Assembly (NCBI GenBank): GCA_037146815.1 | Contig: JBAWWJ010000014.1 | Location: forward strand, 1,114-65,113 | Direction of reading: 5' to 3' | Source of the DNA: Planctomycetota bacterium | GTDB lineage: Bacteria > Planctomycetota > Planctomycetia > Planctomycetales > Planctomycetaceae | Length of the DNA stretch: 64,000 bases | Part shown: piece after piece, positions 1 to 9,937 of the stretch | Position numbering within the stretch: the stretch's first letter is position 1 | Layout: every line of letters starts with the position of its first letter | Notes under the pieces: generated by a model | Told to the model about the DNA's origin: nothing | What the model saw: only the letters and a program-made list of their open reading frames with translations | Databases searched by the model: none | Program-made: the position numbers and the translations under genes

Positions 1-646
1 CACGTGCCGCATAAAGGCGTCCTCGTTCACAGAGCGCAGAAGAATGCTTTGGGACAAGTTCAATGACCTTGTCGAAATCCGCCTCAGCCTTTTGCAGGTT
101 TCCGAGTCGCCGCCAGGCGATCCCTCGCATTAGCAGAAGCGACGGCTTGAGTTCTGACTCCAGTGCCTTATCGAGTTCGGCAATCGCCTTTACAGCGTCT
201 CCTTTCGCGTACAACGCCCATGCTCGTTCCTGGTGAAACAACTTTTCCAAGCGAGCATCTTTTCGAACAAATTCGTCGATCCTCCGCAGGCCTTCATCAA
301 AGTCCTGATCAGCCAGTTCAGACTCTCCCATTTCGCGCCAAAGTTCGCCACGCAGTATGTACGAACGCGGAGCCTGACCCGTTCGGATTGCTTCGGCGTA
401 ATCCTTGAGTGCGCGCACAAACTCCATTTTCTGATCAAGATAGACGGCTCGTTTGAAGTATCCCGATGACGGGTCGCGCTCAATTTCTGCAGTTGCCTTT
501 GCAATGTCCGTGTCCAGATCAGATACAACTTCTTCCTCATGGGGGGGATCCTGAGAAGTGTCGTTGTCTGCGTAAGCCTGCCAGATGCATTGAAATAGGG
601 CGCATGTCAGCAATGCACAGCGAATAGCATCCTTGCCATTAATCAT
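1..646 (-). CDS. TPR protein with signal peptide, third paralogue of the tandem array (5' part; runs off the left edge; absent from the ORF track)
   Basis: Manual translation from ATG 646 is stop-free to the window edge: MINGKDAIRCALLTCALFQCIWQAYADND...DIAKATAEIERDP...YILRGELWREMGESELA...ERAWALYAKG...ALCERGRLY. It is colinear with the two ORF-track paralogues and has the same GAAAGGATCTGAAATG start context as 2129. Confidence 0.9.
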   Translation of the reverse strand, partial: MINGKDAIRCALLTCALFQCIWQAYADNDTSQDPPHEEEVVSDLDTDIAKATAEIERDPSSGYFKRAVYLDQKMEFVRALKDYAEAIRTGQAPRSYILRGELWREMGESELADQDFDEGLRRIDEFVRKDARLEKLFHQERAWALYAKGDAVKAIAELDKALESELKPSLLLMRGIAWRRLGNLQKAEADFDKVIELVPKHSSALCERGRLYAAR

Positions 647-692
647 TTCAGATCCTTTCTGAACTCGCTGTTACCAAGACATCGCGGTTCGA
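647..692 (-). promoter_or_regulatory. Conserved ~46-bp leader with RBS upstream of a TPR paralogue (second copy 2130-2175)
   Basis: ttcagatcctttctgaactcgctgttaccaagacatcgcggttcga versus ttcagatcctttctgaattcgctgttaccaaggcaatgcggttcga. On the coding strand both end in AGAAAGGATCTGAA-ATG. Confidence 0.7.
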
Positions 693-722
693 TCGCAAAA
701 TAGGCCTGAATTCATTGAGTGC

Positions 723-2129
723 TCAATTGTCCTTGACGGACTCCCGGAATGGCATCGACTGTTTGAAGAGCTTCAGGAGATTTTCCCGCGTCGCAGCGTC
801 GCGTTTCGGGTCGATTTCATTGGCCTGCGTCAATCGTTTGACGGCTTCCTCATATTCGCTGTTTTCGGCGTGAGCGGCGGCCAGCGTGACGATGAAGTCA
901 TCTTTCTTCCACTTCGTCGCTTCGCAGGCTTTTCGCGCCAGTTCGATGGCCGATTTGCCGTCTCGAAACTTGGCATCCGGACACGTCGCTTGAATCCACG
1001 CCAGATCATTCTGGGCTTGTGTTGAGGCGGGATCCATCCGAAGAGTTTCCTTCAAATCAGCAATCGCCTTTTCCCACTCCCCCTTCAATCGCCAGACACC
1101 CGCACGATCCAGTTGCGGAAGGAAATCGTAATAGTAGACGCGGTCGCGCGGGCCGCGAGCGGGGTACAGTTCCCGGCCACTCAAAGTCGGTTTCACATAA
1201 TTCGGTGTAAAACGAACTGCCTGGTTCAAATCATCGAGTGCCAGATCAATCTGTCCCAATGCCATACGAGCACAGCCGCGATGACGGTAGGCCGGTGCAT
1301 ACAGCGGGAAAATTTTGATCGCTTGTGAGCAATCTGCAATTGCCTTCTCGTATTCATGCAGATTTAAATTGGCATATGCACGGCTTGCGTAGAGAATCGG
1401 ATGTTCAGGTTTGAGTCGAATCGATTCATCAAAATCTGTGATCGCATTTGCGAAATCACCATTCATATTGCGAAGGCGCCCTCTTTCACAGAAAGCGGCG
1501 GAGTTTCGCGGGGAAATCTTAATGGCGCGGGCAAAATCGTCTTCTGCTTTATCCAGATCACCAAGTTGTCTCCATGCTACCCCACGCATCTCGAATAGTG
1601 CCGAGCGAAAGGGCGTATTCTCTGTTTCTCTTTCGAGGGCCTTGTCTAAGTCCGAAATAGCTTTCGCCACATGCCCCTTTGTATACCATGCCCATGCACG
1701 GTCACGCAGATTGATTTTTTCTTGTTGTGGATCTTTCTGAAGAGCTATGTCGATCAGTCTCACTGCCTCGTCGAAGTCCGATTCTGCAAGTTGGGGTTCC
1801 CCGATTTCCCGCCAAAGCTCGCCGCGAAGTAGATAGAACCTCGGATTAGACGGTGCAAGCCGCAACACCTGTCCGTAATCCTTAATCGACGTTACGAGTT
1901 CCATTTTCTGGTTAAGTCGAGTGGCTCTCCGAAAGTATTCTGCAACTGCATCAGGATCTCGGTCGATGATCGCCGTCGCTTTAGCAATGTCTTTTTCAAT
2001 GGTGGAAAGGATTGACTCCCCTTCACGGGGGTCTTCCGCTTTCGTGTCGTGTGCGTGAGCCTGCCGTGCACACGGAATAAGGGTGCACACCAGCAAAGCA
2101 CAGCAAATAGCATCCTTGCCATTGATCAT
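723..2129 (-). CDS. Exported TPR-repeat protein (array paralogue 2)
   Basis: 468 aa ORF with a hydrophobic N-terminus, several TPR-like repeats and the C-terminal module NDLAWIQATCPDAKFRDGKSAIELARKACE common in planctomycete TPR proteins. Confidence 0.9.
   Translation of the reverse strand: MINGKDAICCALLVCTLIPCARQAHAHDTKAEDPREGESILSTIEKDIAKATAIIDRDPDAVAEYFRRATRLNQKMELVTSIKDYGQVLRLAPSNPRFYLLRGELWREIGEPQLAESDFDEAVRLIDIALQKDPQQEKINLRDRAWAWYTKGHVAKAISDLDKALERETENTPFRSALFEMRGVAWRQLGDLDKAEDDFARAIKISPRNSAAFCERGRLRNMNGDFANAITDFDESIRLKPEHPILYASRAYANLNLHEYEKAIADCSQAIKIFPLYAPAYRHRGCARMALGQIDLALDDLNQAVRFTPNYVKPTLSGRELYPARGPRDRVYYYDFLPQLDRAGVWRLKGEWEKAIADLKETLRMDPASTQAQNDLAWIQATCPDAKFRDGKSAIELARKACEATKWKKDDFIVTLAAAHAENSEYEEAVKRLTQANEIDPKRDAATRENLLKLFKQSMPFRESVKDN
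863..1406. repeat. 544-bp direct repeat, copy 1 (copy 2 at 2359-2902)
   Basis: Offset 1496. The ends were checked base by base, and identical shadow ORFs (1019..1210 = 2515..2706; 1113..1328 = 2609..2824) support identity inside. The flanks diverge. Confidence 0.9.
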
Positions 2130-2218
2130 TTCAGATCCTTTCTGAATTCGCTGTTACCAAGGCAATGCGGTTCGACCCCTGCATTCGCGTTAAGTCACTT
2201 GGTAAATACTCGGCAGCA

Positions 2219-3622
2219 TCACTTTTCCTTGACCGAGTCCCGGTACGGCATGGACTGTTTGAAGAGCTTCAACAGTTGTTCCCGCGTCGCAGCGTCGCGC
2301 TTTGGGTCAATTTCATTGGCCTGCGTCACTCGCCTGACGGCTTCATCATATTCGCCGATTTCGGCGTGAGCGGCGGCCAGCGTGACGATGAAGTCATCTT
2401 TCTTCCACTTCGTCGCTTCGCAGGCTTTTCGCGCCAGTTCGATGGCCGATTTGCCGTCTCGAAACTTGGCATCCGGACACGTCGCTTGAATCCACGCCAG
2501 ATCATTCTGGGCTTGTGTTGAGGCGGGATCCATCCGAAGAGTTTCCTTCAAATCAGCAATCGCCTTTTCCCACTCCCCCTTCAATCGCCAGACACCCGCA
2601 CGATCCAGTTGCGGAAGGAAATCGTAATAGTAGACGCGGTCGCGCGGGCCGCGAGCGGGGTACAGTTCCCGGCCACTCAAAGTCGGTTTCACATAATTCG
2701 GTGTAAAACGAACTGCCTGGTTCAAATCATCGAGTGCCAGATCAATCTGTCCCAATGCCATACGAGCACAGCCGCGATGACGGTAGGCCGGTGCATACAG
2801 CGGGAAAATTTTGATCGCTTGTGAGCAATCTGCAATTGCCTTCTCGTATTCATGCAGATTTAAATTGGCATATGCACGGCTTGCGTAGAGAATCGGATGT
2901 TCCGGTTTGAGTCGAATCGATTCATCGAAATCGGTGATCGCATTTGCGAAATCACCACGCATATTACGAAGGCGACCTCGTTCAAAGAAAGCACCCGCGT
3001 TCTCAGGGTCAATCTCGAGGGCGTGGGCAAAATCGGCTTCTGCTTTATCCAGGTCGCCGAGTCGTCGCCGTGCTATCCCGCGCATCTCTAGCAGTACCGA
3101 GCAAAAGGGCAGATTCTCTGCCTCTCTTGCCACGGCCTTGTCTAAATCCGAAATTGCTTTCTCGATCTGCCCTTTCGTGTACCATGCCCGCGCGCGATTC
3201 CGTAAGTTAAATGTTTCTAATCTTGGGTCTTTCTGGAGAGCCGCTTCGATCAGTCGCAATGCCTCATTGAAATCCGATTCTGCAAGTTCCGGCTCCCCGA
3301 TTTCCTGCCAAAGGTCGCCACGAAACAGATAGAAATCTGGATCAGACGAAAGCCGCAACACCTGCCCGTAGTCCTTAATTGACTTTAAGAGTTCCATTTT
3401 CTCGTCAAGTCGAATGGCTCTGCGAAAGTATTCTGCAACCGCATCTGGATCTCGGTCGATGATCGCCGTCGACTTAGCAATGTCTTTTTCAATATTGGAA
3501 AGGATTGACTCCCTGTCACCCGTCGACGCTAACGACGAATCGTCTGCGAAAAGTCGGCAGGTGTGATGCAACACTATTCCAAGAATAACGACAAAGACTA
3601 AATCTCTCTTATCATGTGACAT
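2219..3622 (-). CDS. Exported TPR-repeat protein (array paralogue 1)
   Basis: The ORF track gives 2219..3703. The likely start is ATG 3622 (MSHDKRDLVFVVILGIV...), preceded by GAAAGGATTCACGAA. Colinear with 723..2129. Confidence 0.9.
   Translation of the reverse strand: MSHDKRDLVFVVILGIVLHHTCRLFADDSSLASTGDRESILSNIEKDIAKSTAIIDRDPDAVAEYFRRAIRLDEKMELLKSIKDYGQVLRLSSDPDFYLFRGDLWQEIGEPELAESDFNEALRLIEAALQKDPRLETFNLRNRARAWYTKGQIEKAISDLDKAVAREAENLPFCSVLLEMRGIARRRLGDLDKAEADFAHALEIDPENAGAFFERGRLRNMRGDFANAITDFDESIRLKPEHPILYASRAYANLNLHEYEKAIADCSQAIKIFPLYAPAYRHRGCARMALGQIDLALDDLNQAVRFTPNYVKPTLSGRELYPARGPRDRVYYYDFLPQLDRAGVWRLKGEWEKAIADLKETLRMDPASTQAQNDLAWIQATCPDAKFRDGKSAIELARKACEATKWKKDDFIVTLAAAHAEIGEYDEAVRRVTQANEIDPKRDAATREQLLKLFKQSMPYRDSVKEK
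2359..2902. repeat. 544-bp direct repeat, copy 2
   Basis: Matches 863-1406. Confidence 0.9.
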
Positions 3623-3678
3623 TTCGTGAATCCTTTCGATTGAGAATTCCTGATGCGTGACAAATTCGCTCGATAATT

Positions 3679-6291
3679 TTATGCGAAAGGCGAGGAAACC
3701 CACGGCGAAGACAAATCTGGCGGAAACACCAGATCCGGTGTAAGCGTTTCGTGAAATACGGGTGGAAAGTCTTGAGGTTTCACTTCAAGAGGACTGACGC
3801 CATCATAATATTTGTGCAATAGCGATTTTTCCGATTTATCTTCATTCAGAATTTGTGATTTCCATGGTTCTGATTTCTCCTGCTTGAACGGTTCGAAGTT
3901 CAGCAGGACTCCACGCCCAAACCCTTCCTCCCTCGGCTCGCCCGGTTTTCCTTTACCAATTTCTCTTCCAAATTCAAGTTCCAGATTGAACTTCCAGAAT
4001 TCCAACCGTGCTTTAATACCGTCGAGGCCAGCAGGGTCCGTTGGATCGAATTCGCCAATTTTGTGCTTTTCTTCCGGGGCCGCCTGAGCATTAGGGTTTA
4101 GGGTGCCGCCAGTGCCGCCAGACGTCCCCGTCAATACGGTCACCAGACTGGATGTGGCCGTCTGCAACGCCGCGATATCGCCCGAGATTTCCGTCGCCAC
4201 GTCATCAGCCTTTGTATCTGCTGCTGTCTGCGCCGCTACGATGATTGTGTCATATGCAACGACCGCAGTATCCCCTTGAGCATCCGCGGCGGCCTGTGAT
4301 GCAGTGATGATCGCCGTCGCGGCAGTCAATGCATCTGAGACCACCGCATCTGCTTCGGCCTGTGCCTGTGGTGCAACCATATTAACAAACGCTAATGCGT
4401 TGGCAGCCTTGGTGTCAAGCAGGGCCTGCGCTTCGGGGACGACTGTATTTACGAAAGCTTGAGCATCGTCGGCCACAGTATCCGTCGCGGTGACCCATGC
4501 GGACGCAACGTCTGCCACCCATTGTGCCCGGCCATCACTGATCGCGTTCATGTAATCGCCGAACGCGTGTGCTTCCGTTGCGGTCCGAGCTGCATTTGCT
4601 TGCTCAAGGGCTGCCTGCAACCCGGCGTACGGGTTACTTTGAGTACTCGCCCAACGTGACATGGCTGCCGCCAGAGCGTTCTCGTCGGCGATCGATTGCG
4701 TCGTTGAGGCGTTCGTTTCGGATTTTTCGCGAGTCGCTTCGGCAGCCGAGACCGCAACGTCATACGACGCGGCGACCGGTGCCCAACTGTGTTCCCAGGC
4801 ATCGGCCGCAGCAGCGTCCGATGTCGCTCGAGCAGCCGCAGCGGCAATCATCGCAATTTCTGCGGTGTCCGCTGAAGTCGCATCATCCTTGATCTGTTGC
4901 GCTGCCGCTGCGTCCAGAGAGACCGCATAAGCTGCTTGTGCCGCGACGTCGGCCAGTTCCCACTGTGCTGCCGCTGCATCCAATGCATGTCCTTCGGCGT
5001 TTGTCGCAGCCGCGTCCGCCTGTAATTGTGTCGCCGCCGCAGCATCCAGTGCATGTGCGGCGATGTCTTCCGCCGCTGCATCGGCACTCGCCCAGGCCGC
5101 TGTCGCGCTGGCCTCGGCTGTCAACCAGGTTGCCAGTGCATTAGCGACGCTGTCGCTGTACGCCGTCGCCGCCAAAGCCACGTCATCCGATGTTGATGCG
5201 GAATTGTTCGCGACCGCAGAATATGCTGCTTGGGCGTTTGCCACTGCTGAGTCGTAAGCTGCGTTGGCGCTGGCATCCGCTGCTGCGTACGCAGACTGAT
5301 CCGCTGCCATTGTTGCGTCCAGGGCATCATTGGCCGTTTTGACTGCTGCATCGTACTGCGTCTGGTGAGCAGCAATCGCCGCATCGTAGGCTGTTGTCGC
5401 GGCGAGCACCGCAGCATCATTCGTTGATTTATCGCGAGCAATGGCAGCATCGAGAGCCGCTTGAGCGGATGCAGCGGCGGCGTCAAATGCGGTCTGATGG
5501 GCAGTCAAGTCCGCCTGATAAGCATCTTGTGCAGCCTGCGAAGCGGCCTGGTACGTCGCCAGGTCTGCTGCTGTTGCACCATTGTACGTGGAATCAATCG
5601 AAGCCATTGCGGTTTGATAAATTGTCAGCGCTGCCGCCTTGTCTGACTGAAACTGAGTTTCTGCCGCGCTGTATGCAGATGCAAAGGCTTGCTGGGCCGA
5701 TGCCACATCGGAAACGTATGTCGAGTCGGTGGAAGAATCAAACGGCGTATAGGTGTAGGTCCCCGACCCGGACGAACTGTACATGAAGGCCATTTCGGCA
5801 GCGGAATAGGCCTGGTAGGCAGCCTGAGTCGCGTTGTTGTACTGAGTTTCGGCTCCGGTCATCGCGACGTACATTGTGCTACCGGCTGCCATATTCGCTG
5901 CGTTTTCGGCGCTGGTTGCGGTCTGCTGGGCAGCGACATAAGCGACATTCGCAGACTGATCACTGGATCGCTCGAAATTCGCCGCGATCTGCTCTTGTGA
6001 ATTGAAAAGGCTTTCCGCAGATTGATCAGCGGTGGATTCTGCATTGGCTGCATTTTGTTCATAAGTGTAGAACGCAATCTGTAATGCCTGGTCGTTGGTA
6101 CGATCTGCATTCAACGCGTTGTTGGCCAGGGTCAAGTACGTGTTCGCGATTGTCTGATCGGTCGAATTCTCGGTGTTCCTCGCAATTTGTACAGCCGAAT
6201 TATAGTTGTTCGTTGCCGTCTGATCCGAGGTGTTGGAAGCCGCCTGATCGACGCTGAATGCCTGGTTGACGGCCGTCGTAGAAGTCTCCAA
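3679..6291 (-). CDS. Ala-rich helical 22-residue-repeat protein with a distinct C-terminal domain; probably the 3' part of a gene frameshifted from 6300..6881
   Basis: 870 aa ORF with a TTG start and no evident RBS; its frame stays open ~60 nt upstream (..QYALTAALETS..). xDQ recurs every 22 aa, and the last ~140 aa switch to charged/aromatic composition and lower GC. Confidence 0.8.
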   Translation of the reverse strand: METSTTAVNQAFSVDQAASNTSDQTATNNYNSAVQIARNTENSTDQTIANTYLTLANNALNADRTNDQALQIAFYTYEQNAANAESTADQSAESLFNSQEQIAANFERSSDQSANVAYVAAQQTATSAENAANMAAGSTMYVAMTGAETQYNNATQAAYQAYSAAEMAFMYSSSGSGTYTYTPFDSSTDSTYVSDVASAQQAFASAYSAAETQFQSDKAAALTIYQTAMASIDSTYNGATAADLATYQAASQAAQDAYQADLTAHQTAFDAAAASAQAALDAAIARDKSTNDAAVLAATTAYDAAIAAHQTQYDAAVKTANDALDATMAADQSAYAAADASANAAYDSAVANAQAAYSAVANNSASTSDDVALAATAYSDSVANALATWLTAEASATAAWASADAAAEDIAAHALDAAAATQLQADAAATNAEGHALDAAAAQWELADVAAQAAYAVSLDAAAAQQIKDDATSADTAEIAMIAAAAARATSDAAAADAWEHSWAPVAASYDVAVSAAEATREKSETNASTTQSIADENALAAAMSRWASTQSNPYAGLQAALEQANAARTATEAHAFGDYMNAISDGRAQWVADVASAWVTATDTVADDAQAFVNTVVPEAQALLDTKAANALAFVNMVAPQAQAEADAVVSDALTAATAIITASQAAADAQGDTAVVAYDTIIVAAQTAADTKADDVATEISGDIAALQTATSSLVTVLTGTSGGTGGTLNPNAQAAPEEKHKIGEFDPTDPAGLDGIKARLEFWKFNLELEFGREIGKGKPGEPREEGFGRGVLLNFEPFKQEKSEPWKSQILNEDKSEKSLLHKYYDGVSPLEVKPQDFPPVFHETLTPDLVFPPDLSSPWVSSPFA

Positions 6292-6299
6292 CGCAGCCG

Positions 6300-6881
6300 T
6301 TAATGCATACTGACGGAGCCTCCACTGCCAGAGGATCCACTTCCCGAGCCGCTTCCGTTACCAGAAGACGACCCACCGCCTGAGGATGACCCGCCTCCGT
6401 AGTTCGATCCGCTATTAGGAGTTACAACAAGGGTCACAGTACCAATGGACTCGTCCCCCGCAGCGTCCGTAACCGTGTAAGTGAATGCCTCAGTACCGTT
6501 AAAATCGAACGCTGGCGTGAAAACCAGGCTGTCAGGTGGGCCGGCAGGCATTCCATACATCGATGGCATTCCGTGCTGAATGCTCACCGTCCCATGAGCG
6601 ACTGCAGACACCGATGCGATTGTCAACGGTCCATTGTCCGTGGTGTCGTTGCTCAGAACATCGAGCGTGACAGGAGCTCCGATCGACATGAGGTTTGGTT
6701 GCTGCACTTGATACGAATCGTCAAATGCGATTACGGCACTCAACAAGCGACGGGGCTCAAGCGACTCGATTGCGGGGGCAGCGTTTGAAAACTGCGAGCG
6801 GCGCGATCGCCTGACTGGCTTCGGTGCCCACAGGTAACTGATGCGTCTTCTGACAGATTCCAGCCAGTTCAATGCAGGCAT
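6300..6881 (-). CDS. LEPR-XLL N-terminal motif + bacterial Ig/cadherin-like repeat + Gly/Ser linker (probable 5' part of the split gene)
   Basis: MPALNWLESVRRR...IESLEPRRLLS; Ig-like AFDDSY..LDVLSND..FTPAFDFNGTEAFTYTVTD; ends in a GS linker. Confidence 0.85.
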   Translation of the reverse strand: MPALNWLESVRRRISYLWAPKPVRRSRRSQFSNAAPAIESLEPRRLLSAVIAFDDSYQVQQPNLMSIGAPVTLDVLSNDTTDNGPLTIASVSAVAHGTVSIQHGMPSMYGMPAGPPDSLVFTPAFDFNGTEAFTYTVTDAAGDESIGTVTLVVTPNSGSNYGGGSSSGGGSSSGNGSGSGSGSSGSGGSVSMH

Positions 6882-8644: not shown

Positions 8645-9937
8645 TTACGGCTTCTTGTAAACGACCCCGTCCTTCATCACGAAGTCCACCTCTTTCATCA
8701 GTCGAATGTTCTCAAGCGGATTCCCTTTAACCGCGACAATATCCGCCACCTTTTGGGCTTCCAGTGTCCCCAGTCGTTGTTCAATCTTGAGCAATCGAGC
8801 CGCTTCCAGCGTCGCGGACTGAATCGCCTTCATCGGAGACATCCCGCCGGCGACCATCAGTTCAAATTCGCGAGCGTTCTGACCGTGTGGGGAGACTCCC
8901 GAGTCGGTTCCAAACGCGATTTTGACACCCGCCTTGTGAGCCCGGATAAAAGTTTCCTTGATGGCGGGACCGATCGCGGCCGCTTTCGGGCGAACGATCT
9001 CCGGGAAATATCCGGGCTCTTTCGACTTTTCCGCAACCCATTCCCCCGCCATGTTGGTGGGGACCCAGTAAGTCCCTGTTTCTTTCATCAACTGGATCAC
9101 TTCGTCCGTCATAAACGTTCCATGCTCAATCGAATCGACACCCGCGACAACGGCACGACGAATTCCTTCGGTCCCGTGGGCGTGGACGGCAACGGTCATG
9201 TTGTAATCTCGCGCCGTCGTGACGACCGCTTTCAATTCCTCTTCGGTGAACTGCGGGTTCTGGCCGCTGGCAGCCATACTGAGGATGCCGCCCGTGGCAG
9301 TCAGTTTGATCAGATCGGCCCCATCCTTGTAGCGTTGTCGAACCGCTTTGCGAGCTTCGTCCGGTCCGTTGATGACTCCTTCCAGCGGTCCGGCATCACG
9401 TCGATAGTCACCTCGCAGAGCATTCGTCGGATCCGCATGTCCGCCGGTCGTCGCCAGCGATTTTCCTGATGTGAAAATTCGAGGTCCCGGGACCCAGCCC
9501 TGTTCGATCGCTTTTCGCAATGCGACAGAATTCACGCCGTTGTCGCCAAGATCGCGAACCGTTGTAAATCCGGCCAGCAGCGTTGCCCGGGCATAAACGG
9601 TGGACCTCAGAGCATAGTCCGCCTGCTCCATGAAAAATCGTTCGGTGTACGAATCCTTCGAATGCTGGGACTGCAGATGTGTATGCATATCCATCAGACC
9701 CGGCATCACCGTGTGCTCGGTCAACTTGAGCAGCGTGTCGCCTGGTTTGGGTTCAACGTAGCCGCGGGTGATGCTGGTGATCTTCCCCTCATCGACGACG
9801 ATGGTCACCTGCAATAAAGGTTCCTCGCTGCGTCCATCGATCATCCGGCCAGCGTGGATGACCGTCGAACATCTTCCGGCGGACGACCATGAAAGAACCA
9901 ACGCCAGTGCCAGCCAAACAAATCGTGTCTGTTGCAT
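8645..9937 (-). CDS. Exported metal-dependent amidohydrolase (Xaa-Pro dipeptidase/imidazolonepropionase-like)
   Basis: [46 protein letters not shown]. Signal peptide from ATG 9937. Confidence 0.9.

Follow-up and report, generated by a model that had tools for sequence, protein, structure and literature searches.

The window analysed here is a 64,000-nucleotide stretch of a Planctomycetota draft genome of 8.05 Mb (assembly GCA_037146815.1; contig JBAWWJ010000014.1, here C14, positions 1114-65113). It contains a broken gene for a large protein with a LEPR-XLL-type leader, an immunoglobulin (Ig)-like domain, a long alanine-rich stalk and a distinct C-terminal module, followed by the greater part of an array of four tandem genes for exported tetratricopeptide repeat (TPR) proteins. 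It is proposed, with a probability of about 0.45, that the locus belongs, in decayed form, to a family of planctomycete effectors which are secreted, carried on a stalk and built like polymorphic toxins, and that the TPR proteins provide immunity. Judged from the sequences, module and adjacent gene are swapped jointly across the family, on the principle by which polymorphic toxin systems are organised.

In its intact form, as represented by the relatives L047, L050 and L064, the stalk protein is a single chain of ~1060-1270 aa in which a LEPR-XLL-type leader, a Big_9 domain and a Gly/Ser linker precede an Ala-rich helical stalk of 700-800 aa and an exchangeable C-terminal module which changes together with the gene or genes directly downstream. 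The module of the window, here called type A, consists of a predicted short beta-hairpin and a Pro/aromatic-rich tail and is paired with a TPR protein of 465 aa that is exported and whose gene is found here as four tandem copies. Toxicity would reside in the module as the active, envelope-directed end of the stalk protein, and periplasmic TPR proteins would bind it via their fast-evolving N-terminal halves and thereby protect the producer and its kin. In the source genome a 7-nt deletion in the linker severs the leader from the stalk and module, and export of the effector has thereby probably been lost. The TPR genes have remained intact, as would be expected of immunity genes kept against the toxins of neighbours.

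Very little is known about competition between planctomycetes and other bacteria or about the roles of their many giant LEPR-XLL proteins. If the family does consist of stalk-borne effectors with swappable tips, one subset of LEPR-XLL proteins would gain a function and a new export leader and stalk would join the polymorphic-toxin repertoire. The type A tail would then represent an effector type without a known fold, and the TPR proteins would be immunity proteins of an unusual sort. The copy in the window is itself decayed and is chiefly of value as an entry point to the family.

A split stalk gene and four TPR genes in an accessory block

The features of the locus are as follows, with the frame break placed by comparison with L047, a related locus on a metagenome scaffold.

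6300..6881, minus strand: N-terminal fragment, an open reading frame (ORF) of 193 aa with a LEPR-XLL-type leader, a Big_9/cadherin-like Ig domain and a Gly/Ser linker
6304..6305, minus strand: site of a 7-nt gap relative to L047 and of the frame shift within the Gly/Ser linker (from DNA alignment; placement ambiguous by a base or two)
4129..6291, minus strand: Ala-rich stalk of ~720 aa (31% Ala), part of an 870-aa ORF that has no leader
4102..4128, minus strand: Gly/Thr linker GTSGGTGGT, boundary between stalk and C-terminal module
3679..4101, minus strand: type A C-terminal module, 140 aa plus stop, GC content 0.479
2219..3622, minus strand: TPR1, exported TPR protein of 467 aa, ATG at 3622
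723..2129, minus strand: TPR2, exported TPR protein of 468 aa
1..646, minus strand: TPR3, N-terminal 215 aa; the gene extends past the window to C14:383
C14:1-300 and C212:13191-14303, outside the window: TPR4, across two contig ends
7080..8438, minus strand: gene for a major facilitator superfamily (MFS) transporter, the conserved flank that forms the upstream edge of the inserted block

The original prediction, made from the letters of the window alone, had described a single same-strand run of leader, linkers, repeat body, C-terminal domain and TPR genes. All of the listed elements are present and lie on the minus strand, but the large gene is not one ORF, being interrupted by a TAA stop (6302-6300) and a change of frame. 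The leader ORF (6881..6300), which starts MPALNWLESVRRR... and contains ESLEPRRLLS, terminates at this stop within the Gly/Ser linker. The Ala-rich ORF lies in a different frame that is open from 6357, has its first start codon (TTG) at 6291 and ends at 3679 after 870 aa. In the DNA alignment the window lacks 7 nt which are present in L047 between ...AGTATGC and ATTAACGG... (6305/6304), and it is from this gap that the TAA stop arises. An assembly artefact is an unlikely cause of the break, because the separate megahit assembly L052, which is 99.76% identical and gapless over 8629 bp, has the identical split into 193 and 870 aa. The ratio of nonsynonymous to synonymous divergence (dN/dS) of the stalk relative to L047, 0.11, indicates that the break is recent. 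Since the gene is broken in the window, the source genome probably makes no secreted full-length stalk protein.

As a putative export element the N-terminal fragment has a LEPR-XLL-type motif and is split from the stalk by the frameshift; its match to the Pfam family Planc_extracel is sub-threshold (E 0.0027, 17.8 bits with the cut-off at 25.5 bits), and an NCBIfam search with this ORF gave no match to a LEPR-XLL model. The Ig-like domain is matched by Pfam Big_9 over residues 65-151 (E 2.7e-15, 57.5 bits against a cut-off of 23.6 bits) and by Cadherin_5 (E 1.8e-7). Among the source-genome ORFs of at least 300 aa there are four instances of a LEPR-like motif, each of them falling at residues 41-70 of an ORF that is 1421-9122 aa in length. 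A second N-terminus composed of LEPR-XLL and Big_9, 48% identical over 158 aa, is encoded at C121:13311-17573 (minus strand) of the same genome, where it is attached to a Ser/Thr/Gly-rich, acidic protein body (1421 aa) and not to an Ala-rich stalk.

The ATG of TPR1 at 3622 lies 56 bp past the stop codon of the stalk ORF (3679-3681), exactly the distance first noted; the exported TPR paralogues, originally put at 'at least three', are indeed present and number four. TPR1-TPR3 match TPR_1 with E values of 1e-13 to 2e-39 and have hydrophobic N-termini ending in an AxA-type site. Two of the window's TPR proteins exceed the family thresholds for both TPR_1 (E 1.6e-37 and 2e-39) and TPR_2 (E 3.6e-35 and 5.4e-36), and the NCBIfam model TPR_END_plus scores 55-60 bits in the window TPR proteins against a cut-off of 32 bits. 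The tandem paralogues are separated by spacers of 77-90 bp. At the contig ends joined by TPR4, C14 and C212 overlap by 8 nt and the protein sequence is continuous. The join is confirmed because the metagenome contig L046 carries all four TPR genes (467, 468, 460 and 469 aa) on one contig, between the end of the stalk gene and a convergent gene for a pyrroloquinoline quinone (PQQ)-propeller protein.

The TPR paralogues evolve under purifying selection, with a dN/dS of 0.13-0.35 in both halves. Selection was considered as the cause of the sharper identity of their C-terminal halves and rejected, as dS is lower there, which points to gene conversion. In the source assembly TPR1 and TPR2 share an identical run of 544 bp. 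L046 and L052, which come from nearly the same strain, have identical TPR1 genes that differ from that of the window at 17 positions confined to 2612-2786, and their longest identical TPR1-TPR2 run is 116 bp. The 544-bp identity is due to gene conversion at the level of strains or, alternatively, to a repeat that was collapsed in the source assembly.

The two closest syntenic genomes, G155 (MFS gene 95% identical) and G154 (85%), lack the entire block of ~8.3 kb, and in them the MFS gene is only 21-51 bp from the PQQ-propeller gene that adjoins TPR4 in the source genome. Because the two flanking genes nearly abut in these genomes, the block is an accessory insertion or deletion. The edges of the block show no direct repeats, tRNA gene, integrase or mobility genes, and the spacers are unalignable between relatives. 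A scan for promoters and terminators found sites no more numerous than in shuffled sequence. TPR4 and the PQQ-propeller gene converge on an inverted repeat (TCTGCTGTCAGAAGAGCAGA) at C212:13142-13190, just past the TPR4 stop; the repeat may serve as a terminator in both directions.

C-terminal modules that change together with the next gene

The Ala-rich stretch (~730 aa, 31% Ala) is homologous to the corresponding part of protein P0001 (E 6e-43) and of relatives in the genus (E 1e-37 to 2e-106); among the stalk matches there is none to the Pfam ALF repeat at E <= 0.01. It is followed by GTSGGTGGT (4128..4102) and the 140-aa type A tail (4101..3682), where the abrupt change in composition and lower GC content that had first drawn attention to the last ~140 aa are borne out. 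The tail contains 12% P, 12% E, 10% L and 9% K, and is also rich in G and F. Its GC content is 0.479, against 0.58 in the stalk and 0.553 +/- 0.027 in the genome, and falls in the lowest 0.6% of 420-bp windows. A beta-hairpin is predicted (GIKARLEFWKFNLELEF ... GVLLNFEPFKQ), followed by a Pro/aromatic-rich end, and the outline shared with homologous tails is ...P.G.DG[IL]K.R[LF]E.WK.ELE[IV]E ... LLN[FL].[PL]FK... before an end of the same Pro/aromatic-rich kind.

The tail is not an orphan. A phmmer search of the 140 aa against 1.84 billion representative proteins gave 0 matches, and its homologues were found through the neighbouring TPR genes rather than through the stalk. A word-indexed search with the Ala-rich ORF gave two proteins, its candidate list being saturated by low-complexity words, and alignment-derived pattern searches of genome and metagenome contigs for related loci returned nothing, the patterns being of low complexity. 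L047 (L047:577-3753), located at the same MFS-flanked site, encodes a single 1058-aa protein that is colinear with both window ORFs; its identity to the window is 83% over the leader and Ig domain (residues 1-160), 81% over the stalk and 46% over the tail. Stalk genes consisting of a single ORF are also found in L050 (1196 aa), L064 (1269 aa) and L041. In L047, L048, L050/L065 (L050 being G178:C642) and L064 (G167:C292) the type A tail is followed at 46-120 bp by a TPR homologue that is 35-61% identical, and L047 carries at least two TPR genes. These homologues are the closest TPR relatives outside the source genome, and the type A tail is found only beside TPR genes. The large proteins of L047, L048, L050 and L064 all have an Ala-rich stalk and the type A tail outline, with no Pfam match.

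Within the genus, the TPR family (E <= 1e-40) occurs in 3 of 33 genomes, which are exactly those with a type A tail. A profile of the tail, run against 398 genomes of the taxonomic family, finds the same three and one false positive, a borderline match (E 0.008) in G134 (L077, G134:C99, 1667-8052). The region around this match was read as phage-like on account of a terminase-like ORF and large structural-type ORFs, and the match was rejected. The original prediction had named as grounds for abandoning it homologues that keep the same C-terminus and lack downstream TPR arrays; the homologues do keep the C-terminus, but they also keep a TPR gene beside it, and the idea is not refuted.

The same data bear on the simplest alternative, that the stalk gene and TPR array are unrelated neighbours. 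Distant TPR homologues in other genera (33-40% identical) are single genes in unrelated contexts, as this would lead one to expect, but five other loci retain the adjacency, at TPR identities of 35-61% and gaps of 46-120 bp, both gene families are restricted to the same three genus genomes, and gain or loss affects the block as a whole. A chance association is thus close to refuted.

The tail and the TPR proteins also resemble each other in their rates of divergence. Between the window and L047, dN is 0.48 in the tail and 0.41 in the N-terminal half of TPR1, compared with 0.10 in the stalk, 0.10 in the leader and 0.14 in the C-terminal half of TPR1, dS being similar throughout. Divergence in the tail and the N-terminal half of TPR1 is thus ~4x that in the other three regions, as would be expected from two co-evolving surfaces.

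Counting type A, at least four C-terminal modules that are unrelated to one another occur on proteins sharing the leader, Ig domain and Ala-rich stalk. Each type has a downstream gene family of its own, and the downstream gene products are exported in types A, B and D. Alignments between type A and type B or D proteins end inside the stalk, and those between type A proteins continue into the tail. Type B (P0002, L066, L068 and L069) has a ~200-aa tail with an invariant Cys in FDC[DE]D[FY]A and a His in GH. Its AlphaFold2 (AF2) model (mean per-residue confidence, pLDDT, 78.6; predicted template modelling score, pTM, 0.78) places the Cys at the start of a helix, and its best fold matches in the PDB are vasohibins, transglutaminase-like Cys proteases (E 1e-3, probability 1.0). 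Directly downstream of the type B tail lie one to three members of another exported family, of ~450 aa, that has no Pfam match and ends ...EKSDRPVFFIALFAE... The members of this family are found at 3320-8730 of L066 (G175:C80), 7189-8541 of L068 and 3357-4772 of L069, and their conserved end reads ...EKSDRPVFFIALFAETEP...YEKVRDF.LDK; the three copies in L066 have FGE-sulfatase-like fragments in between. Type D (L067) has a HExxH motif and a sub-threshold match to eCIS_core/DUF4157, and a small lipoprotein gene comes next. The tail of P0001 consists of a PT-HINT domain (E 4e-18) and a short end; PT-HINT is a Pfam domain typical of polymorphic toxins. Two of the types coexist in genome G178, which has a type A locus as well as one of type B. 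The candidate pairs are thus the type A tail with the TPR proteins, the Cys-His tail with the ~450-aa exported family and the HExxH tail with the lipoprotein.

The variable C-terminus postulated at the outset, in the manner of polymorphic toxins, consequently exists at the level of the family, with its four or more modules, a PT-HINT relative and an accessory block, but not within type A, whose module is constant among the closest homologues.

Four of the eight stalk genes that were seen in full are disrupted, and every downstream gene is intact. The disrupted genes are:

window stalk gene: frameshift
L048 stalk gene, 2321-2466: 5' truncation, leader gone
L068 stalk gene, 3400-3950: frameshift in Big_9
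L066 stalk gene, 9050-9330: TAA inside the Cys-His domain

Immunity, assistance or attachment

Immunity is favoured as the role of the TPR proteins over that of a chaperone or anchor, which is considered less likely. According to this second explanation the TPR proteins are dedicated periplasmic partners (chaperone, secretion helper or anchor) that grip the tail and aid export of the fibre or its fixing in the envelope, and the stalk protein is an adhesin or surface fibre with a variable tip and no antagonistic function. Such a role is consistent with the tendency of TPR domains to bind extended peptides, the tail being predicted to be disordered and rich in Pro and aromatic residues, and with the tail's lack of a catalytic signature. 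The combination of Ig-like domain and long stalk recalls fibrillar adhesins, TPR and stalk genes strictly co-occur with no free-standing TPR genes in the genus, and the TPR genes have weak NCBIfam matches, far under the cut-offs, to assembly proteins of the PilW, SycD/LcrH and PorW types. The parallel fast divergence would fit any co-evolving binding pair, and there is a model for such a partner in the neighbouring exported protein MafA of Neisseria, which is reported to secrete the toxin MafB (PMC7738311).

However, a helper with one client would leave unexplained why the TPR paralogues should form a tandem set of four, or why the type B partner should be present in triplicate. Helpers should also decay with their client, and with four of eight clients broken the neighbours are all intact and under purifying selection. 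In addition, the sister modules that are borne on the same architecture look like toxin-type enzymes (Cys-His fold, HExxH, PT-HINT). The parallel divergence of tail and TPR1, the downstream arrays (four TPR genes here, three type B partner copies in L066) and the broken effectors with intact neighbours together favour immunity over a helper role.

A third explanation is that the family comprises secreted or surface enzymes and binding proteins for nutrition or attachment and that the downstream genes encode inhibitors, pro-domain-like regulators or substrate binders, with no competition involved. Planctomycete genomes do encode many giant exported proteins, as illustrated here by the four ORFs of 1421-9122 aa with LEPR-like motifs, and the protease-like C-termini could be directed at environmental substrates. 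This is nevertheless judged improbable, given the PT-HINT domain in one relative, the co-variation of the tail with an adjacent gene that is exported in types A, B and D and found in arrays, the patchy, island-like distribution and the frequency of gene decay. PT-HINT, co-variation, patchiness and decay fit conflict systems better than housekeeping enzymes.

Several observations nonetheless weigh against the proposed effector and immunity functions. The first set concerns the tail. Its sequence has no match in Pfam, PDB sequences or PADLOC and no homologue of known function; a profile of five tails gave a single chance match to PDB sequences (E 0.93), and PADLOC run on the locus returned a generic TPR model and nothing else. 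The aligned type A tails have no conserved Cys, His, Asp or Glu, the invariant residues being G and K across five sequences and G, K, Y, P and F across four. The AF2 model of the last 225 aa, from a 4-sequence alignment, consists of a hairpin and disorder and is too poor for a fold search (mean pLDDT 36.8). Ahead of the tail there is a Gly/Thr linker instead of a HINT, PT-TG, VENN or other pre-toxin or processing domain. With no fold, catalytic motif or homologue of known function found, the initial view that a toxin fold is not assignable to the type A tail holds, and as far as the data go they reach to a non-enzymatic binding or membrane-active role.

The second set concerns the TPR genes and the family at large. 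TPR proteins are classic chaperones and assembly factors, and those here, at 465 aa, would be large immunity proteins. It is common for immunity genes to spread as orphans without a toxin gene, and none of 30 congeners has TPR genes without a stalk gene; nor do the 77-90-bp spacers between the TPR genes hold orphan tail or toxin cassettes. In a test for positive selection dN/dS was < 1 everywhere, both among the TPR paralogues and for the locus relative to L047. We know of no delivery route by which LEPR-XLL proteins would enter a target cell. Finally, the relatives are draft genomes or metagenome contigs, in which some of the 'broken' genes could be assembly errors.

A bolder form of the effector and immunity proposal, which is regarded as doubtful, is that the LEPR-XLL leader and Ala-rich stalk constitute a planctomycete-specific scaffold by which interbacterial effectors are delivered. 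In this case the type A tail would be a new non-enzymatic toxin, for example a membrane-acting or envelope-binding beta-hairpin, and the exported TPR proteins a new class of periplasmic immunity proteins whose N-terminal half sets specificity.

Comparison with known systems

The closest parallel is with the Sec-exported polymorphic toxins, for which alpha-helical repeat stalks and HINT processing are listed (Zhang, Aravind et al. 2012, PMC3482391). Like these, the family consists of a putative N-terminal export element, a filamentous stalk and an exchangeable module tied to the next gene, and it shares with them a HINT domain in one relative, arrays of downstream genes, patchy distribution and low-GC module ends. 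It differs from them in that its leader is of the planctomycete LEPR-XLL type with a Big_9 Ig domain, its module comes without a recognisable toxin fold, pre-toxin domain or orphan cassettes, its stalk has no ALF match at E <= 0.01 and, in types A, B and D, the candidate immunity proteins are large and exported. In the literature, no paper was found that describes LEPR-XLL with Big_9 as a toxin leader or links LEPR-XLL proteins to polymorphic toxins.

A precedent for helical-repeat proteins as immunity factors is provided by PldB (Tle5b) of Pseudomonas aeruginosa, a type VI-delivered phospholipase D (PLD) that is neutralised by the paralogous Sel1-like (TPR-related) proteins PA5086/5087/5088, which bind it via their repeats (PMC13736854). 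The window likewise has several paralogous helical-repeat proteins to one candidate effector gene. The genes for PA5086/5087/5088 adjoin pldB, and their products act in the periplasm. Unlike PldB, the stalk protein has no PLD domain, no link to a type VI secretion system is seen and the similarity of the TPR proteins to the Pseudomonas repeats is generic only.

With CdiA/CdiI and the Rhs/YD-repeat toxins the locus has in common a long stalk, a variable C-terminal tip and a cognate downstream gene, tips and partners being swapped jointly, but the block is without a TpsA domain, filamentous haemagglutinin (FHA) or YD repeats, a VENN or PxxxxDPxGL boundary motif and CdiB or VgrG genes. MafB/MafA of Neisseria (PMC7738311) is likewise a Sec-exported polymorphic toxin on a genomic island whose exported neighbour is reported to serve its secretion, and it is thereby a model for the alternative role of the TPR proteins. 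No sequence relationship with it is detected. The mafA gene lies upstream of mafB, and MafA is not a TPR protein. Fibrillar adhesins are similarly exported proteins in which a long stalk and a low-complexity linker are combined with an Ig-like domain; unlike in the family described here, an exchange of enzyme-like C-termini in step with an adjacent gene is unusual among them.

Two further loci bear on features of polymorphic toxins. In L045 a PT-TG-like motif was considered, but it was unconfirmed by Pfam and was dropped. In L044 (G140:C23), the region 2664-5499 past a distant Ala-rich stalk gene contains a 221-aa ORF, a 158-aa lipase_3-like fragment (GHSLGG) and an ankyrin-repeat gene, a layout that resembles the toxin fragments and Imm-ank genes of polymorphic toxin loci.

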